Assembly (NCBI RefSeq): GCF_003334305.1
Contig: NZ_QOWS01000001.1
DNA length: 64,000 nt
Reading direction: 5' to 3' (one strand)
Source of the DNA: Escherichia coli
GTDB taxonomy: Bacteria > Pseudomonadota > Gammaproteobacteria > Enterobacterales > Enterobacteriaceae
Part shown: positions 54,745 through 64,000 of the stretch, one piece after another
Numbering within the stretch: the first letter of the stretch is position 1
How the letters are laid out: every line of letters begins with the position of its first letter
Program-made: the position numbers and the translations under genes
The notes under the pieces: model-generated
Told to the model about the DNA's origin: nothing
The model's input: only the letters and a program-made list of their open reading frames with translations
The model's database searches: none

Positions 54745-55206
54745 TTATTTCACTTCTTTAAAACCAGCGGCTTTCATCACCAGTTCCATTTGCGCCATAG
54801 TGATACCTTTTTTGGCATCTTCAGCAGAAACGTTGATTCCTGAAATACCCTGCAGGGCTTTAAAATCCACTTTTTCCATATCGATAGTCACGTTTTCCTG
54901 CGCGTAGGTATCTGTATAGGTTAATTTTTCTTCAACACCCGCGATGTTTTTGTATTTGGCGCTTAACGGCTCAAGTGTCTTGGCAGCGTCTTCTTTGGTG
55001 GTTGCACCAATAGAAGCAAATTGAATTTTGGTTTCAGAAGATTGCTTAAGCACCTTGTCACCTTTGTAGACATAGGTAATGGCAATTTCAGTGCCGTTCA
55101 GATTGGCGCTGAATTTCTTCGATTCTTCTTTGTCACCGCAGCCAGCAAGAGAGAAAACCAGAACAGATGCAACAACGAGGGAAAACAGCTTATTGAAAGC
55201 CTTCAT
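54745..55206 (-). CDS. yehR: Lipoprotein YehR (DUF1307), 153 aa
   Basis: ORF 54745..55218; start at 55206 (MKAFNKLFSLVVASVLVFSLAGC lipobox). Confidence 0.85.
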   Translation of the reverse strand: MKAFNKLFSLVVASVLVFSLAGCGDKEESKKFSANLNGTEIAITYVYKGDKVLKQSSETKIQFASIGATTKEDAAKTLEPLSAKYKNIAGVEEKLTYTDTYAQENVTIDMEKVDFKALQGISGINVSAEDAKKGITMAQMELVMKAAGFKEVK

Positions 55207-55330
55207 GTAAAACTCCATTTTATTTAATCAAGAAACTGGTGACTCTCACCAGGGGCTATATAGAATATGCCTAATACCGTGACGTGAGCAGTCCGGAACT
55301 GGAGTAGAACTCTTAGTAAAAAGCACTATT

Positions 55331-57331
55331 TCATCCTTGTTGCTGAAGCATGGGGAATAATTGTTCGCAAAGTAAAACACCGTTATTCATTGCTTCTACC
55401 CGTGCCTCGCTTTCTGTATTACGAAATTGTCCCAACACATGTGCCAGCCGATAAAAACCGACCGCGGAGAGGTCATTCGCCAGCAACTCTGCCTGACTAA
55501 TAGCGCTCTGTTCCTGATAGCGCCAGCCGTTATGGAGCAGTTGAATAAGTAACGCCTGGCAGCGCATCAGCAACTGATGAGCGGTAGACGGCACAGGCAA
55601 AACGCTGGCAGAAGGTAGCGGTGCCACAGGCGCAGTTTCTGCGTCCAGCGCCCAGGCGCGGGTTTTTGTCATCATCACCCGTGGTTCCAGTGTCAATTGC
55701 CCATCAACAAAACTGACAAAGCCAGAAACCAGACTCACGGGGTCGTCTGTTTGTTGCAAAAGCGCCGCCATGCGTTCAACGGCAAAAGGAGAACAGGCAG
55801 ATGCCGGAAGGGATAACGTCAGGAGATTATCTTCACCTTCGCCGCTGATTACCTGCGCATCCAGCGTCTGGCGGCTGCTATCCCAACCGAGCGAAATACA
55901 CTCAGCGACCGGCAGAATAAATAAGTTATCGACCTGATTAAGAGGCCGTATGCAGGCGGGGGGACGCTGGCGTAAATATTCCCGCAAAGCCACAATGCCC
56001 GGCTGGCGTAACGGCGCGCTCAACATTTGCCAGGCATCAGGCGACAGCGGCACAACGCTGCTTAAGCGGTTGCGGGTAGCTAACAGCAGCTCGCCATCGG
56101 CACTGCGTTTTGCTGCTTGTGAAACAATTTGCCCACCCGCCAGTGCGCCAGCCTGAAAACTAAACAGCCGACGCGTAGCTGCCGGTGAGTTTTCCTGTTC
56201 ACTTCGCGGCCAACTGCGCGAAAGGTGCAAAATACTGCCGGTGTCGGGATCGGTAAACCAGATGCGTAAACCATAATGCTCAATATCCTGCCAGCAACGC
56301 ATACCTAAAGACACCAGCCGCAGATGATCAAGCTTTGCTTCTCCGGCAATGCCAGAGCCAACGACCGTGCGCCACGGCACAGGAGGAACTTCACCAACAC
56401 TGTCGCGCCGGGCCATCTCTTGTGCGCAATTTAATCGACTGTTTAATGCCGCAAGCTGACGTAAGCATTCTCCGGCATGATAGTGGCTGGCGCGGGCGTG
56501 GAAGGCATCAACGCTTGCCCGTAGCTGTCGTAGTGATTCACTCACCCATCGCCAGTTGCAGCGTTCCGCCGCCTGCTGCGCGCGACTGAAAGCGGCCTCG
56601 TAGTGAATAAGCGGCTGGCTGATGCCGCCCAGCCATAATGCCTGGCTTAATTGCTGAACATATTGACGACACGCGTTACCCTCGTCGTTGGCAAACGGAT
56701 CGTCAGATGATGTGACGTGTTCGCTGCGCATCTGCCAGATTAAATGAGTAAATTCCGCTTGCTGAGTTTTGGCCTCGACGAAGGCCTGCACAGCCAGTAC
56801 GACATGTTCGCAAAGTGTGCCTTCAATACAATCACAACGGGCGAAACGAATACTGCTGCGGGAATAAAAACGCACATCGCTCATCGGTAAGCGGGCAGAG
56901 GGAATTTCGCCCGGCGTACAGAACAACTCAATGGTGATGCCTTTAGCGACCAACGCCTGTGCGCGTTTGCGGGTGGCATCGGGCAGGGTAGCCAGTTCTT
57001 CCAGCCAGATTGCCGGATCCCACGCTTCTTCTTTTTCCGTAGGCTGGGCGGTAGTACAAAGTCGTTGATAACTTAACACAAGCATCACGCGATGACGGCA
57101 CATACCGCTGGCCCCGCAGCTGCACTGAGCCTCTTTCAGTGCCTGGCTGTTCGCCAGCTGGGTACGGACACCGTCACTGAAGGTGGCGATTAAAGCGCTG
57201 TTCTCATGGCTGATTTCCGGGACGTTGCCATTTTCCAGTTCCTTAAGACTGCGCTTAACAAAACCGGCATTGCTTAACGCCGTCAGGGCCTGCGGTGTCA
57301 GTTCTAATAATTCCGGACGTAGTGAATTCAT
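55331..57331 (-). CDS. yehQ: SWIM zinc-finger domain protein YehQ, 666 aa from this start
   Basis: ORF 55331..57355; start assigned to ATG 57331 because it forms an ATGA overlap with the yehP stop; Cys/His cluster near the N-terminus (CSCGASGMCRH). Confidence 0.85.
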   Translation of the reverse strand: MNSLRPELLELTPQALTALSNAGFVKRSLKELENGNVPEISHENSALIATFSDGVRTQLANSQALKEAQCSCGASGMCRHRVMLVLSYQRLCTTAQPTEKEEAWDPAIWLEELATLPDATRKRAQALVAKGITIELFCTPGEIPSARLPMSDVRFYSRSSIRFARCDCIEGTLCEHVVLAVQAFVEAKTQQAEFTHLIWQMRSEHVTSSDDPFANDEGNACRQYVQQLSQALWLGGISQPLIHYEAAFSRAQQAAERCNWRWVSESLRQLRASVDAFHARASHYHAGECLRQLAALNSRLNCAQEMARRDSVGEVPPVPWRTVVGSGIAGEAKLDHLRLVSLGMRCWQDIEHYGLRIWFTDPDTGSILHLSRSWPRSEQENSPAATRRLFSFQAGALAGGQIVSQAAKRSADGELLLATRNRLSSVVPLSPDAWQMLSAPLRQPGIVALREYLRQRPPACIRPLNQVDNLFILPVAECISLGWDSSRQTLDAQVISGEGEDNLLTLSLPASACSPFAVERMAALLQQTDDPVSLVSGFVSFVDGQLTLEPRVMMTKTRAWALDAETAPVAPLPSASVLPVPSTAHQLLMRCQALLIQLLHNGWRYQEQSAISQAELLANDLSAVGFYRLAHVLGQFRNTESEARVEAMNNGVLLCEQLFPMLQQQG

Positions 57332-58464
57332 GACTGAAGATTCTCCGCAAGCCATGATGCCAGCTCGCCCGGTGTCATGGCGGCTATTTGTGCGCCGACA
57401 TTTACCAGCGCCTGGGCCGTATCGTGGTCATAGCAAGGTGTTGCTGTGCTATCGAGCGCTGCCAGTCCCAGCACTTTGATGCAGCTCTGGACACACTTTT
57501 TCACCTGATGCGTCAGTAATGATGATGAACCCCCTTCGTAAAAATCGCTCACGAGGATAATGACGCTTTTCGCTGGTTGTTCAATAAGTTGCCGACCATA
57601 CTCCACGGCACTGGCGATATTGGTCCCGCCGCCCAACTGTACTTTCATTAATAACTCTACCGGATCGGCAACGTCTGCCGTGAGATCAACGACGCTTGTG
57701 TCAAACGCCACCAGATGGGTACGAATGCCGGGTAACTGCCACAAACAGGCCGCCATCACCGCAGAGTGGATCACCGAATCGACCATCGATCCGCTTTGAT
57801 CAACCAGTAAGACCAGTTGCCATTGTTCGCTTTGGCGTTTAATGCGGCTGTTAAAGCGGGGGGATTCGATATACAACTTGCCGTGTTGCGGGTGCCAGTG
57901 TTGCAGGTTGGCGCGCAGAGTACTTTTGAAATCAAAGTTTCGCGCCAGTGGAATAAATGAACGGCGACGGCGATCGCGGACACCAGAAAAAGCCTGACGA
58001 ACTTCCTTTGCCAGTCGCGCCATAATTTCTTCAACAACCTGGCGCACTATCTGGCGGGCGGCAGCCAGTACTTCGGGATTCATCAGATGTTTGGTGTGCA
58101 AAACGGCGCGTAGCAGGCTTTCCGAAGGCTGCATACGTTCCAGCACGTCGAGATTTGTCACCACATCTTCAATGCCGTAGCGCAGTACGGCATCGCTTTC
58201 CAGCCGCTCAATCACCTGTTGCGGAAACAGCGTGTGGATACTGTTGATCCACTCAGGAGTGGTGAGATTTGAGCCACCTAATCCACCAGAGCGTTCACCA
58301 CGCTGGAGCCGTTCAGGATCGCGCCCATACAGCCACTCCAGCGCGTGATCTATCTGCCGGGCGTTGTCATCCAGCCCACAAAGCGTCGTTTCTGCCGCTT
58401 CGCCAAGAATTAATCGCCAGCGTTGTAGCTCACGGGTGGTCAGAAGATCGTTCAGTTCAGACAT
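57328..58464 (-). CDS. yehP: von Willebrand factor A (VWA) domain protein YehP, 378 aa
   Basis: ORF 57328..58692; start at 58464 (MSELNDLLTTRELQRW); VWA/MIDAS-like region (LLVDQSGSM). Confidence 0.88.
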   Translation of the reverse strand: MSELNDLLTTRELQRWRLILGEAAETTLCGLDDNARQIDHALEWLYGRDPERLQRGERSGGLGGSNLTTPEWINSIHTLFPQQVIERLESDAVLRYGIEDVVTNLDVLERMQPSESLLRAVLHTKHLMNPEVLAAARQIVRQVVEEIMARLAKEVRQAFSGVRDRRRRSFIPLARNFDFKSTLRANLQHWHPQHGKLYIESPRFNSRIKRQSEQWQLVLLVDQSGSMVDSVIHSAVMAACLWQLPGIRTHLVAFDTSVVDLTADVADPVELLMKVQLGGGTNIASAVEYGRQLIEQPAKSVIILVSDFYEGGSSSLLTHQVKKCVQSCIKVLGLAALDSTATPCYDHDTAQALVNVGAQIAAMTPGELASWLAENLQS

Positions 58465-60735
58465 GGAAAACTCCCCAGTGTTGCAGCGATGCCAGTGCCT
58501 GCTGTTCGAGTTGTTGATGATGTGCAATGGCTTGCGGTGGACAATGCAACGGCATTTGCAGTGCCGAAACGGGAAGTTGCGCCAGTTGATAATGCTCAAG
58601 CACCTGATGCGCCAGCGTTCCGCGTTCTCGTGGCGGTAGCCAGGCCATCGCCGCGCGTAAATCGGGCAGGGCATTGATAAAATCGGCATCACTTAGTTGA
58701 TTTAAATGACTGCTGAAACCGGCGATAAATGTCGGCTGACAGGCCAGTTGATGACGGGCTAATGCCAGCAAACCTTGCAGCGCCTCGCCGGATTGTGCCG
58801 GGGATAACTGCGCCAGCATCGTCAGCGCCGCTTCGGCACTGGCGTTGGGATGTTCCAGACGCATTAGTGCGCCAAGAACCGCGCCGCGATCCAGCGCCGG
58901 GGCATGAATCGCCTGACTGCGTCGCTCCAGTAAGGCTACCGCCGCAGAAAGCGAAACGCCGGATAAATTAACGCCGCTATGTAGATCGCGCAGAATATGG
59001 CAAAGCGCTTGCCAGCTATGCAGGTGAGCGTGAAACTCCTTTTCATCCGGTCTGCCGTTAGATTCACACAGCCACAGCGTGCGATCGATAGCGCGCATAA
59101 CGTCGTTTGTAATATCTGCGCGCCTTGCATACCGCTAATTTCATCCAGCCGCCATAAGGCATATAGCACTTCCAGCGCCTGGCCCATTTCGGCAAATTGA
59201 TTTTCCTGGGCGATTAATAATGTGAGTTGCTCCAGTAATTGTTGACTGAAGGACGCCAGACCCGCTAACGCCGCCTGGCTAAGACATGTGGTGATACTGC
59301 CGATTCCACCCGCGTCCAGCATATCGGCTTCTAATTTATGGCGTGCGGCTTCCTGGAGTGTTGCACCAAAGCAGGCGGCCTCAATCAATGCCGCATGCTG
59401 GCTAAGCGGGCGGGTTAATTTCCAGCGTTCTTCACCGTTGCCTGCAAGTGTCAGTGTGCTTCCCTGCTGGCGTACAATCCCTGGGATCTCCAGTATTGCC
59501 AGCCGATGTAACACCTGACTTTGCGCTAGTCCATTGGGGTTAAAGCGATTTAAGGTAAGCTCCGCCGGAAGAGAGATTGCGGTACGTTCCAGTTCGCAGG
59601 TGACATCTTTTGGCAGAGGCGGTTGTGGCGTAGAAGGGGCAAGTTTACCGAATCCGTCACCCGCTAATGTGTCTATCAACGTTAGCAGAATCGGATCGGT
59701 ATCGGGATGAATAACGCCGCGATAGCTCCACGGCAACGGCGCATTCAGGGCTTCTTTAATCAGCGAGCCTGCTATGGCATCCAGCCAGTCAGTGCGTAAC
59801 GGTAGTGTATGACCGCGCAACTGTGCCAGCGCCATCGCATGCAGATGAGCGGCAGCCATATCCGCGGTCGAAGCAGGCAACTTGTGCTGGCGCAAACGGG
59901 TGAGAACCGTTTTTAGCAGTTGTTCTCCCGCCTGCTGTAAGCCCCACTGCCAGCACCAGTTTTGCCAGACCGGGGCAGGCATTCCGGAAAGGTATCCTGC
60001 CAGCACATCAAGGCGCTTTTCACTGTAGGGGGTGAGATAACAACCTGTAACGGCATCTGCCAGCGACGGCAATTCTGGCGTGTTAATTTCCTGCGGGCAT
60101 TCGCGCCACATTTTTGCCAGTACCGGAGCGTGCCAGCCACCGCAGACAACTAACACGTCGCCATTATTTTGCTGCATCGCCCATCCAATCCAGCGGGCCA
60201 TAAAGGCTTCGCGCAGACGATTGAGAGCATCTCCGGGGGAGTCGCCCCGCAGTTGGGCAAAATAGTGCGCCAGTGCAGAGGGTAATGCAGTTTGCTGGCT
60301 TTCATCTTCGAACAAGTGATCCCACAGGGTGTCGCTGTTATCCATGCGGGTGGCACGCAGCAGCAAGGCCTGGCTTTCCTCTTGCGTATCAGGCGAATCG
60401 TCCACTTCTTCACTCTGCGCCCAGCAAGGCAAATCGATGAAGTAAGTTTGTGCCTGAATACGACGTGCGGCTTGTAGCGCCTGCCACTCCGGCGAAAATT
60501 CAGCAAATGGCGTCCAGGCACCACGCCCGGGGGCTGCACCGTCCTGATACTGGCAATAACTGTAAATAGCTACCGGAAGCTGGTGGGCTAAAAACAGTTC
60601 GTCTACCCGGTCATTAAAATCAGCCGGGCCTTCAATCAATACGTATCGTGGCCGCTGGCTTTCGATTAACGATTTCACCAGCCGGGCGCAGGCCGGACTA
60701 TGATGCCGGATGCCGACAATTAACGGCTCGCTCAT
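58457..60735 (-). CDS. yehM: YehM, interrupted by an apparent frameshift (fragments 58936..60735 and 58457..59098 in different frames)
   Basis: Two overlapping minus-strand ORFs span 2279 nt (not a multiple of 3); N-terminal fragment starts MSEPLIVGIRHH at 60735; the C-terminal fragment ends overlapping the yehP start. Either a pseudogene or a sequence indel. Confidence 0.7.
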
Positions 60736-60745
60736 GCATCTTTCC

Positions 60746-61834
60746 TCACGGCAGGCGGTGGCGGGCTTGATAATAAGCCTGCCAGTGAGCTTCTTTATGT
60801 GTGGCGACTCGTTGTTCGAAGTAACGGCGCAGACGAGCGCGATCTTCTTCGTTATCTTTGACGATGGTTCCGGCAATGCAGTCCACCAGGTCGGCTGGCT
60901 CACCTGCGCGATTCGCTAAAAACCAGGCGCGGACGCCTACGGCGTGGGCCACGTTCACGGCTTCAGCGGTGGACATAATCGCTGTTAGTGTATCCATTGA
61001 CGTTTTCTTTTCGCCGTTGGCACGCAGATCGCGGAAGGTGCGGACCAGTAACTCCAGTACCGCGTCAGGCACTTTATGCGGAATACCGCTATGGGCCAGC
61101 AAACGCGCCGAAGCACTGGCGACAAGCTCCAGCTCCTGGGCGAAATCCATAATCGGAAAGACAGTTTCAAAATCGAAGCGACGCTTTAGCGCAGCACTCA
61201 TTTCATTGACGCCGCGATCTCGGGTATTGGCAGTGGCAATAATATTAAAGCCTTCTCGCGCATAGAGCTGACTGGCTTCACCAGTGAGTTCCGGCACCGT
61301 CATCACCCTGTCAGAAAGCATACCTAACAGACAGTCTTGCACTTCCAGCGGTGTACGCGTTATCTCTTCAAAACGGACGATTTTGCCGTCGCGCATTCCC
61401 TGGTAAAGCGGGGCAGGGACCAGCGCTTCCGTTGATGGACCATGATTGATAAGCAGGGCGTAGTTCCAGCCGTACTTGATTTGATCTTCGGTAGTAGATG
61501 CGCCGCCCTGGATGGTTAACCCGGCATCGCCGCTAATAGCGGTTGCCAGTAATTCAGACAGGAGAGATTTTGCGGTGCCAGGTTCCCCCACCAACATCAA
61601 ACCGCGCCCGGTGGCAAGAGTGACTAACATGCGTTCGACAGCGGAGGGACTAATCACCACTTTACGGCTAATATTTTGCGCGCTATCGCCAAGGATAAAA
61701 GCACGGGCCGCAGGCAAACTTAACTGCCAACCGGGCGGGCAAGGAGCGTTATCATTTTGTTTTAATTTTGCCAGTTCATCGGCGTATAACACAGCAGCAG
61801 GCGGACGCTGCAGATGATTATTCTGCGGTGACAT
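60746..61834 (-). CDS. yehL: MoxR-like AAA+ ATPase YehL, 362 aa
   Basis: ORF 60746..61915; start at 61834 (MSPQNNHLQRPPAA); Walker A GEPGTAKS. Confidence 0.9.
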   Translation of the reverse strand: MSPQNNHLQRPPAAVLYADELAKLKQNDNAPCPPGWQLSLPAARAFILGDSAQNISRKVVISPSAVERMLVTLATGRGLMLVGEPGTAKSLLSELLATAISGDAGLTIQGGASTTEDQIKYGWNYALLINHGPSTEALVPAPLYQGMRDGKIVRFEEITRTPLEVQDCLLGMLSDRVMTVPELTGEASQLYAREGFNIIATANTRDRGVNEMSAALKRRFDFETVFPIMDFAQELELVASASARLLAHSGIPHKVPDAVLELLVRTFRDLRANGEKKTSMDTLTAIMSTAEAVNVAHAVGVRAWFLANRAGEPADLVDCIAGTIVKDNEEDRARLRRYFEQRVATHKEAHWQAYYQARHRLP

Positions 61835-61944
61835 ATATTCATCCCTGAAATGTATTAATGAAATAAACGATATTTTACGCGCAATAAATGTTTGGCGCAT
61901 TAGTTGTTTGAGCAAAAAATATCTGGAAAGCAGATCGCAGTAAA

Positions 61945-62028
61945 TAAAAAAACCTGCTGGTGAGGCAGGTTCTTTTATTTACTATTTTCAGGCCTAACAC
62001 CACAGCCTGTGCAACATCGTGTTCCAAC
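61945..62028 (-). ncRNA. Candidate antisense sRNA antitoxin (OrzO/OrzP-type), about 84 nt
   Basis: Minus-strand TTGCAA-17 bp-TATAAT promoter (-10 at plus 62035-62040); predicted 5' end near 62028; strong terminator (AACCTGC-loop-GCAGGTT then TTTTT on minus); first ~20 nt complementary to the toxin leader at 62175-62194. Confidence 0.6.
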
Positions 62029-62034
62029 GAACGA

Positions 62035-62085
62035 ATTATAACCACGGCTGGACCCCGTTGCAATTAAGATAATGAGATTTATAAT
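62035..62085. promoter_or_regulatory. Back-to-back sigma70-like promoters sharing one palindromic -35 hexamer (toxin mRNA rightward, antisense sRNA leftward)
   Basis: Shared TTGCAA at 62058-62063; plus-strand TATAAT at 62080-62085 (16-bp spacer); minus-strand TATAAT at 62035-62040 (17-bp spacer). Confidence 0.55.
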
Positions 62086-62266
62086 CCAGACCGTTGGGAC
62101 GTTGCGCCGGATCGAACCTATTTCAAGTCCTGGCTACCGGACGGGGGGTGCTGCAGGTGGTGCCCTGATCCGGAGTGCAACATCGTGGTCCAACATACGT
62201 AAACCAGTATCGACAGGCAGTGTAAGGGTAAGGTGCTGGTGTTGCGCTCCTTAATAAGGAGAGCGG

Positions 62267-62356
62267 ATGGACTCGCTGACACAAAAGTTAACCGTGCTCA
62301 TTGCTGTACTGGAGCTATTAGTGGCTCTGTTACGGTTGATTGATTTGTTGAAGTAA
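62267..62356 (+). CDS. zorO/zorP: 29-aa hydrophobic peptide, type I toxin candidate (ZorO/ZorP-type)
   Basis: ATG 62267, AAGGAG 5 nt upstream; MDSLTQKLTVLIAVLELLVALLRLIDLLK, one predicted TM helix with charged ends; about 174-nt leader from the predicted start near 62093. Family name is from memory; which copy is zorO and which zorP is not resolved. Confidence 0.75.
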   Translation: MDSLTQKLTVLIAVLELLVALLRLIDLLK

Positions 62357-62377
62357 CGGGCAAATTGAAACGCATCT

Positions 62378-62402
62378 AAGGGGGAAAACCGCTTCCCCCT
62401 TT
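62378..62402 (+). terminator. Terminator hairpin of toxin mRNA copy 1
   Basis: AAGGGGGAA-aaccgc-TTCCCCCTT perfect 9-bp stem 22 nt after the stop; short U-tract. Confidence 0.5.
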
Positions 62403-62554
62403 AATAAAATGATTACTGTTTTTATTAATTCATCATATAACTCATTTTTATTTATAAATTCATCGATTTTATATTCAACGCACCATTTGACCGGGATGTG
62501 AATATTTATGTTGGGCTATTGGCAAAAAATATCTGGAAAGTAGATCGCAGAAAA

Positions 62555-62636
62555 TAAAAAAACCTGCTGGTGAGGCAGGTTCTTTTATTTACTACAGTGA
62601 CGCTAACTTGCTGATTGTGCAACATTTCGTACCAAC
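62555..62636 (-). ncRNA. Candidate antisense sRNA antitoxin, copy 2 (OrzO/OrzP-type), about 82 nt
   Basis: Minus-strand -10 TATAAT at plus 62643-62648 and shared -35 TTGCAA at 62666-62671; terminator 62561-62581 with U-tract; 5' region complementary to the copy-2 leader at 62783-62802. Confidence 0.6.
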
Positions 62637-62642
62637 GAATAA

Positions 62643-62693
62643 ATTATAACCATATCCACACTCCATTGCAATTCAGTGAGTGAGATTTATAAT
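62643..62693. promoter_or_regulatory. Back-to-back promoters of copy 2 sharing a palindromic -35
   Basis: TTGCAA at 62666-62671; plus-strand TATAAT 62688-62693; minus-strand TATAAT at plus 62643-62648. Confidence 0.5.
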
Positions 62694-62874
62694 CCTGCCC
62701 GTTGGGAGGTTGTGCCGGATCGGACCAATTTTAAGTCCTGGCTGCCGGACGGGTGGTGCCGCAGGCGGTGCCCTGATCCGGAGAGCAACGTTTCGTACCA
62801 ACATACGTAAACCAGTATCAACAGGCAGTGTAAGGGTAAGGTGCTGGTGTTGCGCTCCTTAATAAGGAGAGCGG

Positions 62875-62964
62875 ATGGACACGCTGACACAAAAGTTAAC
62901 CGTGCTCATTGCCGTACTGGAGTTATTAGTGGCTCTGTTACGGTTGATTGATTTGTTGAAGTAA
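62875..62964 (+). CDS. zorO/zorP: 29-aa hydrophobic peptide, type I toxin candidate copy 2 (ZorO/ZorP-type)
   Basis: ATG 62875 with AAGGAG upstream; MDTLTQKLTVLIAVLELLVALLRLIDLLK, differing from copy 1 only at residue 3 (S to T). Confidence 0.75.
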   Translation: MDTLTQKLTVLIAVLELLVALLRLIDLLK

Positions 62965-62985
62965 CGGGCAAATTGAAACGCATCT

Positions 62986-63010
62986 AAGGGGGAATACCGT
63001 TTCCCCCTTT
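62986..63010 (+). terminator. Terminator hairpin of toxin mRNA copy 2
   Basis: AAGGGGGAA-taccgt-TTCCCCCTT stem. Confidence 0.5.
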
Positions 63011-63018
63011 AAGAAAGC

Positions 63019-63073
63019 TATACTCGTCATACTTCAAGTTGCATGTGCTGCGACTTTAATTATCTAGAGTATA
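63019..63073. repeat. Truncated ERIC-like element abutting the yehK 3' end
   Basis: TATACTCGTCATACTTCAAGTTGCATGTGCTGCG ... AATTATCTAGAGTATA: ERIC terminal arms with the central part missing. Confidence 0.55.
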
Positions 63074-63391
63074 TTATTCTATTTCTTGGTTGAATATATT
63101 CTGTAGTTCACGATTAAAAATTGCTATTACAGTTTCAGGTGATTCACCTCGTAATTTCCGCTCATCAATACACTCATCTCTTATATAAATCAACGCATCA
63201 TTTATTAGCGGGTCAGCATCTTCTCGATCACGTTGATGAAATGTTGGATGTAGCCGGAATCGCTCCAGTCGATAGACGGAACCTGTAAATAATTCAGAGC
63301 ATTTATGGATCTCAAGTCTGAAGGAAAACGGATCTTCAGGTACAGGGACCTCATAATCGTAAATAGCAACTAGCTCTTTTTGCACGATCAT
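63074..63391 (-). CDS. yehK: Uncharacterised protein YehK, 105 aa
   Basis: 105-aa ORF (MIVQKELVAIYDYEVPVPEDPF...) between yehI and the repeat island. Confidence 0.85.
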   Translation of the reverse strand: MIVQKELVAIYDYEVPVPEDPFSFRLEIHKCSELFTGSVYRLERFRLHPTFHQRDREDADPLINDALIYIRDECIDERKLRGESPETVIAIFNRELQNIFNQEIE

Positions 63392-63451: not shown

Positions 63452-64000
63452 TTAATGGAAAATGACGTCAGGTGCGCTTAACGCCTCACTCAAATCAAAC
63501 ACATCAAGTTCGGCAAAAGTGACGGATTTATTGTCACGGTACACTCGAAGAGAACGGAAGCTCATTAGCGCTTTGCTATCAACATTGTAGTGGTTAAAAC
63601 CGGGTGAAAACTTAAGGACCAGCCGGTACTCGCCCAGGTCATAGACAAATGCATCCTCATAGCCTGACTCCCAGCCTTTGTATCGCATTCCCATAAGCTG
63701 CCCAACGGTAGCGGATTTACCTTCCCAGCGAGTCAGGCTGTTACTGGTTGACTCATCAGGTGTGAGCAGCACCGTGCACCGCGCCAACTGGCGAAAAGGC
63801 GGCATAATTTCGTAATCGGCAAAAAGCTGTGCAAATTCACTGCGCATTTCTACTGTCATTTCTAACGGGTGGGCAATGCCAATCAGAGCGTCCGCAGGCA
63901 GGTCAATTGGCTCATCTTGCGCATTGCAGAACTCCCCCTCTGCGGCCACACGAAAGGCGTTGAGTAAACAACGCGGTTCATTTGCCGGATAAGCCCCCCA
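63452..64000 (-). CDS. yehI: YehI (DUF4132 protein), C-terminal part only (gene continues beyond window end)
   Basis: Minus-strand open frame from the window edge to the stop at 63452; the track ORF 63452..63949 is its C-terminal portion; position before yehK. Confidence 0.8.
   Translation of the reverse strand, partial: WGAYPANEPRCLLNAFRVAAEGEFCNAQDEPIDLPADALIGIAHPLEMTVEMRSEFAQLFADYEIMPPFRQLARCTVLLTPDESTSNSLTRWEGKSATVGQLMGMRYKGWESGYEDAFVYDLGEYRLVLKFSPGFNHYNVDSKALMSFRSLRVYRDNKSVTFAELDVFDLSEALSAPDVIFH

Follow-up and report, generated by a model that had tools for sequence, protein, structure and literature searches.

The pairs RavA-ViaA, CoxD-CoxE, NorQ-NorD and CbbQ-CbbO share a simple genetic design, an AAA_5/MoxR ATPase being encoded beside a protein with a VWA domain whose metal-ion-dependent adhesion site (MIDAS) is intact. 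The same design is recognized in yehLMPQ, a group of four Escherichia coli genes that occupies positions 55331 to 61834, on the minus strand, of the 64,000-nucleotide stretch of DNA analysed here (contig NZ_QOWS01000001.1 of assembly GCF_003334305.1; 'the window' in what follows), and YehP, its VWA protein, belongs to the CoxE family. By analogy, YehL and YehP would be expected to remodel their targets at the expense of ATP, through contact between the MIDAS and an acidic residue. In contrast to the characterized pairs, yehLMPQ has no client nearby; it includes two large extra linked subunits, a TIKI-like DUF5682 protein (YehM) and a protein with SWIM and OB-like parts (YehQ), and it is accompanied by one to five paralogous WGR-DUF4132 proteins. 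YehL has been placed in a named MoxR subfamily of its own, with the E. coli protein as its type member (PMC3893208). The full-text literature yielded no paper assigning a function to yehLMPQ, the remaining mentions being incidental, and the absence of an assigned role asserted in a first-pass annotation of this DNA therefore stands. E. coli has, to our knowledge, only one MoxR ATPase besides YehL, and no function has been attached to the YehL subfamily since it received its name.

Three other types of machine invite comparison. Compared with the Protein Data Bank (PDB), YehL finds its best sequence relatives in midasin AAA modules and in MoxR 2r44, whereas no relative was found for YehM, YehP or YehQ, by sequence or by profile search. 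Midasin (Rea1) also joins an AAA_5 motor to a substrate-gripping MIDAS domain, but it does so in one giant polypeptide that acts on pre-ribosomes, while the Yeh parts are separate and have no link to ribosome assembly. The MoxR-vWA-beta-propeller ternary conflict systems likewise have a MoxR and vWA core, large partners and a bias towards Actinomycetota and Myxococcota. However, the match of YehL to their bpMoxR family is weak and partial (E 0.0021, 52 residues), and no beta-propeller protein is found in the Yeh module, where the partners are DUF5682, SWIM and DUF4132 proteins. Finally, clusters of the SWIM-DUF5691-AAA-DUF5682-VWA type, as on a Deinococcus taeanensis plasmid, contain the same AAA_5, DUF5682 and VWA core, with a SWIM finger that is again N-terminal. 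They differ in having the SWIM gene first and shorter (466 residues), and DUF5691 in place of the DUF4132 proteins; they too are uncharacterized. When YehQ and DUF4132 profiles were compared by hhalign with the Deinococcus SWIM protein, with DUF5691 and with the HEAT protein of a locus termed L084, the alignment was limited to the SWIM finger. At that locus, YehM and YehP of a Yeh-type module are fused, and directly after the module (L084, 13598-19543) come genes for a 501-residue protein, a HEAT_2 protein, an AAA_5 protein and a DUF5682 protein, a set that resembles the Deinococcus type; the arrangement reads as two related systems in tandem. The genes and the YehL subfamily being already catalogued, yehLMPQ is a functionally undescribed MoxR-VWA variant, not a new category.

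The unit that evolution has kept together is larger than these four genes. One genome per species was scanned with an alignment of 72 YehM sequences, which gave at least 567 loci; the best 80 were kept, and they come from Gamma- and Betaproteobacteria, Myxococcota, Actinomycetota and Acidobacteriota. Their gene content was established by searching open reading frames (ORFs) using the E. coli proteins; it is written here with L, M, P and Q for the homologues of the four genes and D for DUF4132 genes resembling molR and yehI. L, M, P and Q follow one another colinearly, all on a single strand, in 77 of the 80 loci, so that the conservation of neighbourhood proposed as a check extends across phyla. 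One of the three others has a truncated contig, and the order L-M-P, with yehP two genes downstream of yehL, is kept in all 80. Three more distant loci also keep the order L-M-P-Q. One to five D genes adjoin the LMPQ genes in about 70 of these loci, as a rule on the upstream side of L; the arrangements met most often are DLMPQ (38 loci), DDDLMPQ (15) and DDLMPQ (9). The DUF4132 genes had first been taken as mere brackets of the cluster; the comparison rather makes them members of it, the conserved unit being LMPQ with one to five adjacent DUF4132 proteins, often with a WGR domain, here MolR and YehI. Clustering of the 2,507 ORFs flanking the 80 loci revealed no further recurrent family beyond genus-level synteny, and for this reason the D-L-M-P-Q module is considered self-contained. 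It is found in at least 567 genomes at species level, and YehM relatives form about 2,250 clusters at 50% identity; plasmids seldom carry the family, and phage records almost never do. Within E. coli, at least 80% of the yehLMPQ stretch is carried by 5,203 of 5,426 complete genomes (96%).

In the window, yehL (61834..60746, minus strand) codes for a 362-residue AAA+ ATPase of the MoxR type (YehL subfamily); yehM (minus strand, start 60735, normal stop 58457) for a DUF5682 protein that would have 759 residues if intact; yehP (58464..57328, minus strand) for a CoxE-type VWA protein of 378 residues with a complete MIDAS; and yehQ (57331..55331, minus strand) for a SWIM zinc-finger protein of 666 residues. 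The positions first given for these four minus-strand genes are right, and yehL, yehP and yehQ are intact, but yehM is broken by a one-base deletion and is a pseudogene here. Read from the sequence, the yehL/yehM junction consists of TGA, 10 nucleotides and ATG, and the Shine-Dalgarno sequence GAGGAAAG shares bases with the stop; 8 nucleotides are common to yehM and yehP (ATGTCTGA) and four to yehP and yehQ, the ATGA where, as had been noted, stop and start meet. Such junctions are conserved beyond E. coli. M and P share a 4-nucleotide stop/start overlap in 53 of 79 loci and P and Q in 55 to 57 of 77, while L and M overlap by 1 or 4 nucleotides in 44 of the 80. Natural YehM-YehP fusion proteins make three independent clusters at 50% identity, one of them in a D-D-L-[MP]-Q context. 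The core reading of a translationally coupled MoxR/VWA/SWIM operon thus holds for the family; in this window the coupling into yehP is broken. The end of yehM had been placed inside the start of yehP, and its normal stop does lie there, although it is reached only by a second frame (59098..58457). Comparison of this strain with K-12 gave ratios of nonsynonymous to synonymous substitution rates (dN/dS) of 0.04 for yehL, 0.12 for yehM, 0.08 for yehP, 0.18 for yehQ and 0.26 for yehI, which denotes purifying selection and counts against a decaying relic.

YehL matches Pfam AAA_5 with an E value of 2.6e-34. Its Walker A motif, GEPGTAKS, reported from the outset, spans G83 to S90, and E156/E157 belong to Walker B. 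The stretches GEPGTAKS, RFEEITR, ATANTRD and ALKRRF are invariant in 80 YehL homologues, the two Walker, the sensor and the arginine motifs all being intact. YehP matches Pfam VWA_CoxE (PF05762; E 2.1e-72), and its MIDAS is complete (D222-x-S224-x-S226, T281 and D307), all these residues being invariant among 79 homologues. Because the motifs of both proteins are invariant, the motor and its adaptor look catalytically competent.

YehM had been described as a large protein of unknown fold. Pfam assigns it to DUF5682 (E 2e-97), and a confident predicted model (predicted local distance difference test score, pLDDT, of 93) displays a TIKI/TraB/EreA-like domain followed by an alpha-solenoid. The modelled N-terminal domain has an alpha/beta fold around a core of parallel beta-strands as in TraB, ChaN, HopBA1, Ere and RRSP, so that, at the level of the model, the presence of a TIKI-fold domain is clear. 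Invariant in 72 YehM sequences are G8-x-x-H11, E35, R175/E176 and G199-x-x-H202; in the model H11 follows strand 1, E35 ends strand 2 and H202 comes after the strand 194-199. Active enzymes of the TIKI superfamily carry histidine and glutamate residues at strand ends, with an arginine nearby, RRSP using two histidines, two glutamates and an arginine (PMC6254334). The spacing is comparable: 24 residues from histidine to glutamate in YehM against 28 in RRSP, and 27 from arginine to histidine against 29 (RRSP residues from PMC6254334). Faint Pfam ChaN matches (E about 5e-3) were obtained for two of the 72 family members. Judged from this model, YehM is likely to be an active hydrolase. It differs from the members of the TIKI/TraB/PrgY/ChaN/erythromycin-esterase superfamily (TIKI, RRSP, EreB, HopBA1, ChaN) in lacking a significant sequence-profile match to them, and in having its domain fused to a helical region of about 500 residues within a MoxR-VWA operon.

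YehQ gave two weak matches to Pfam SWIM (E 0.0011), corresponding to two CxCx5CxH motifs, CSCGASGMCRH (residues 70-80) and CDCIEGTLCEH. The residues of the first finger (C70, C72, C78, H80) do not vary among 47 homologues; those of the second are not conserved. In the predicted model, again a confident one (pLDDT 92.2), the SWIM finger or fingers are followed by a four-helix bundle, two beta-barrels (residues ~330-560) and a C-terminal helical bundle. Two independent fold-search methods returned tandem OB DNA-binding modules, with marginal matches, the folds resembling RPA, CST and POT1; a tandem OB-like module thus appears, marginally, to follow the SWIM finger. YehQ circulates in many forms in E. 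coli and Shigella, with lengths of 416, 501, 517, 614 and 623-627 residues, some having hundreds of member sequences, together with YehP-YehQ fusions of 892 to 1,044 residues. Such variety points to insertions and deletions that have arisen repeatedly, around the ATGA overlap as well as over the C-terminal half of yehQ. The D proteins are more uniform, with about 1,100-1,180 residues across loci and a WGR domain at the beginning of many; their C-terminal 400 residues or so are well conserved, the first 800 or so are not. MolR, the product of an intact gene of 1,264 codons outside the window, has WGR at residues 6-69 (E 4.9e-18) and DUF4132 at residues 988-1173.

Conserved overlaps, natural M-P fusions and invariant motifs lead us to infer that these proteins act as one complex, and for joint action of the four or five the support is far stronger than for any cue or substrate. 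The reading that we favour, tentatively and with a little less than even confidence, is that YehL, YehP, YehM and YehQ make a single stoichiometric, ATP-driven MoxR-VWA remodelling complex controlling a TIKI-type hydrolase, while YehQ and the variable WGR-DUF4132 proteins would recognize, plausibly, nucleic acid. YehL would form a MoxR-type AAA+ ring, with YehP as its VWA/MIDAS adaptor, gripping an acidic residue of a partner. YehM would be bound to YehP, its N-terminal domain acting as a hydrolase with an apparently intact His-Glu...Arg...His centre and its C-terminal alpha-solenoid serving as a scaffold. Recognition would fall to YehQ, with its SWIM finger and tandem OB-like folds, and to the WGR-DUF4132 proteins. 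On a cue, hydrolysis of ATP would then gate, or deliver, cleavage by YehM of a protein or ester substrate.

Several observations weigh against this proposal. Two Myxococcota loci truly lack Q and about 10 of the 80 lack an adjacent D gene, so that neither appears strictly obligatory. The TIKI assignment of YehM is drawn only from fold and motif register: aligned by hhalign with YbaP, the TraB protein of E. coli, its N-terminal domain obtained a probability below 1%, whether entered as a single sequence or as a shallow profile. ChaN, although it belongs to this superfamily, is a haem-binding protein and not an enzyme, and OB, SWIM and WGR domains can bind proteins too. In other taxa, neither the SOS motifs (LexA, proteobacterial and actinobacterial) nor the RecA-NDp motif is enriched in the 270 nucleotides around cluster starts. 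Moreover, E. coli silences the locus: H-NS binds at yehL/yehM, and both genes are derepressed in hns/stpA mutants (PMC3686432).

A bolder version of the proposal would make D-L-M-P-Q a hitherto unrecognized class of surveillance system triggered by nucleic acid, against phages or genome stress. Variable WGR-DUF4132 sensors and the SWIM-OB protein would detect DNA that is foreign or damaged, whereupon the MoxR-VWA motor would release a protease of the TIKI family to attack a protein of the cell or of the invader. We consider it doubtful. No defence model of PADLOC-DB v2 matched YehL, YehM, YehP, YehQ, MolR, YehI or YehK, and an NCBIfam scan of all components returned nothing specific.

Among the competing explanations, the one that fares best, while still unlikely, is the most classical. 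The pair YehL-YehP would be a maturation or cofactor-insertion chaperone, after the manner of CoxD/CoxE, NorQ/NorD, CbbQ/CbbO, CobS/CobT/CobN or BchI/BchD/BchH, for a client encoded elsewhere, with YehM as a ChaN-like large subunit binding metal or haem. YehP does fall in VWA_CoxE and has a weak NCBIfam match to a putative cobaltochelatase, YehL is an AAA_5 protein as CobS is, and all the experimentally studied MoxR systems cited in the survey of the family act in the maturation of complexes (PMC3893208). Yet known MoxR-VWA chaperones adjoin their clients, whereas no client or cofactor gene recurs beside the module, and no recurrent enzyme gene flanks the CoxE-type yehP in the 80 loci. YehM has no Pfam or NCBIfam match of the CobN/BchH type, Pfam giving only DUF5682, and a chaperone leaves unexplained both its invariant His/Glu/Arg/His set and the WGR, SWIM and OB-like parts of the module.

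It is quite improbable that the module is an accessory machine for DNA damage or repair, with WGR-DUF4132 proteins and YehQ recognizing broken or single-stranded DNA while the MoxR-VWA motor remodels or removes proteins at lesions. Several hints go this way. A LexA-type box, CTGGATAAAATTACAG, lies 10 nucleotides upstream of the molR start, outside the window (L001, 24900-24915); molR has been reported as a member of the LexA regulon, and DUF4132 and WGR proteins of Deinococcus are under DdrO control and inducible by DNA damage (bioRxiv 10.1101/2021.07.07.451423); the OB-like folds of YehQ, as said, marginally resemble RPA, CST and POT1. However, LexA-like sites with one mismatch are expected by chance (9 found, 7.7 expected), and the box would control molR, not yehL. 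As such a match is expected by chance and the SOS and RecA-NDp motifs are unenriched upstream of clusters elsewhere, the link with DNA damage is a lead only. Furthermore, the module contains no nuclease, helicase, ligase or polymerase.

That yehLMPQ is a cryptic cluster, acquired horizontally, silenced by H-NS, useless to E. coli and now decaying is very improbable: the frameshift of yehM in this strain, the K-12 molR (yehH) pseudogene and its YehQ of 614 rather than 666 residues, the many truncated or fused YehQ variants of E. coli and Shigella and the silencing by H-NS/StpA (PMC3686432) would fit, but dN/dS values of 0.04-0.18 for the four genes, presence in 96% of complete genomes with a frameshift private to one of them, values of GC at third codon positions (GC3) like those of neighbouring genes and strong conservation across phyla do not. 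Base composition, examined for a trace of recent transfer, is unremarkable (GC 0.547 against 0.511; GC3 as in the neighbouring genes).

The lesion of yehM deserves description. The region belongs to the E. coli chromosome, and from 55000 to 62300 the window is the sequence of strain NCTC9088 except for one absent base. This is a single C at about 59092 (AGC[C]GCG), in yehM. The frame opened at 60735 codes for 548 native residues, then for 51 out-of-frame ones, and stops at 58936, some 470 nucleotides before the yehP start; the normal stop/start coupling into yehP is therefore lost. ORF listings accordingly divide yehM over two frames, of which only 59098..58457 reaches the normal stop. Among 5,054 E. 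coli genomes, the exact 111-mer spanning the deletion turned up in a single one; it belongs to strain A7, which came from an orangutan, and its RefSeq annotation gives yehM as a 'frameshifted' pseudogene. A programmed or widespread frameshift had been envisaged and is rejected on this count. Either yehM was inactivated very recently or the base is missing through an error of assembly, and under both readings the operon as given is not intact. Since YehM should be cut short, and translation of yehP and yehQ uncoupled, this strain probably lacks a working system. An out-of-frame ATG (59096-59098, minus strand), 5 nucleotides upstream of the deletion, opens the ORF of 213 codons (59098..58457) that carries the native C-terminus of YehM. 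Its independent translation seems unlikely, since no Shine-Dalgarno sequence is visible before this ATG.

A second frameshift concerns yehP, where a site prone to +1 frameshifting at codon 291 was reported in a study using reporters and mass spectrometry; the product has 303 residues and lacks the C-terminal 75 residues of YehP (PMC2790909). The cassette, GTGGAGTATGGTCGGC, is present in the window as an exact match (57591..57606, minus strand, codon R291). Because the residues around this codon are not conserved in distant homologues, the cassette is probably specific to Escherichia.

The surroundings of the operon are best read from the gene order yehI-yehK-(zor/orz, twice)-yehLMPQ-yehR. Between the E. 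coli D genes, molR and yehI, and yehL itself lie yehK and the zor/orz insertion. The 3' end of yehI (63452..64000, minus strand; a DUF4132 protein of 1,210 residues, after the NCTC9088 annotation of the identical region) is cut by the end of the window. YehI/YehK and a toxin island had been said to bracket the cluster; both are present and the island is real, but it sits between yehK and yehL. Located at 63074-63391 on the minus strand, yehK has 105 codons, a GC content of 0.38 and a GC3 of 0.27. No homologue of it was found in the 80 loci, nor any family match, and it appears to be an AT-rich insertion specific to Escherichia, placed between the D genes and yehL.

The toxin island (61940-63070) consists of two tandem copies of about 610 base pairs that are 88% identical, and has been published as the zorO/zorP-orzO/orzP type I toxin-antitoxin locus, z3289/z3290 (PMC2887945). 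Each copy has an ORF for a 29-residue Zor toxin on the plus strand (MDSLTQK... at 62267-62356 and MDTLTQK... at 62875-62964) and, on the minus strand, an OrzO-P small RNA (sRNA): the proximal one at 61946..62021 (Rfam RF02083, 99.9 bits) and the second at 62556-62629 (88.8 bits in Rfam). The proximal sRNA, encoded on the strand of yehL, ends about 110 nucleotides before the yehL ATG; it is outside the Yeh module, yet it occupies the promoter region of yehL. The promoter match for OrzO, TTGCAA-17-TATAAT, lies at 62063-62035, and a terminator-like site at 61971-61951. This promoter is the sole sigma-70-like match upstream of yehL on its strand (61835-62063). Pattern scans for promoters and terminators found no such site between the OrzO terminator and the yehL ATG. 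Transcription of yehLMPQ might depend on read-through of the OrzO terminator, or on an atypical promoter masked by H-NS. K-12 reportedly has no zor/orz toxin-antitoxin locus. Its MG1655 genome carries, about 110 nucleotides upstream of yehL, an orphan OrzO-P sRNA gene (L003, 14410-14485; 99.9 bits in Rfam) with a promoter-like site and a terminator; it is equivalent to window positions 61946-62021, and no toxin ORF is present. The K-12 spacer between yehK and yehL, of 306 base pairs, is 97.6% identical to window positions 62126-61835.

With these comparisons, four 'y-genes' of the best-studied bacterium become a defined and widespread module of five components. Those wishing to study it should choose their strain with care: the module is intact neither in the present strain nor in K-12, where molR is split into yehF (WGR) and the yehH pseudogene and YehQ is short (614 residues against 666). 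The predicted catalytic residues of YehM (H11, E35, R175 and H202) can be mutated, as can the standard sites where mutation abolishes activity, K89 and E157 in YehL and D222 and S224 in YehP. If the surveillance reading were true, the module would represent a prokaryotic immune pathway based on a MoxR-gated protease, without described counterpart. If, more generally, a hydrolase is gated by this MoxR-VWA motor, the repertoire of MoxR proteins would extend beyond the insertion of cofactors and the reactivation of enzymes.

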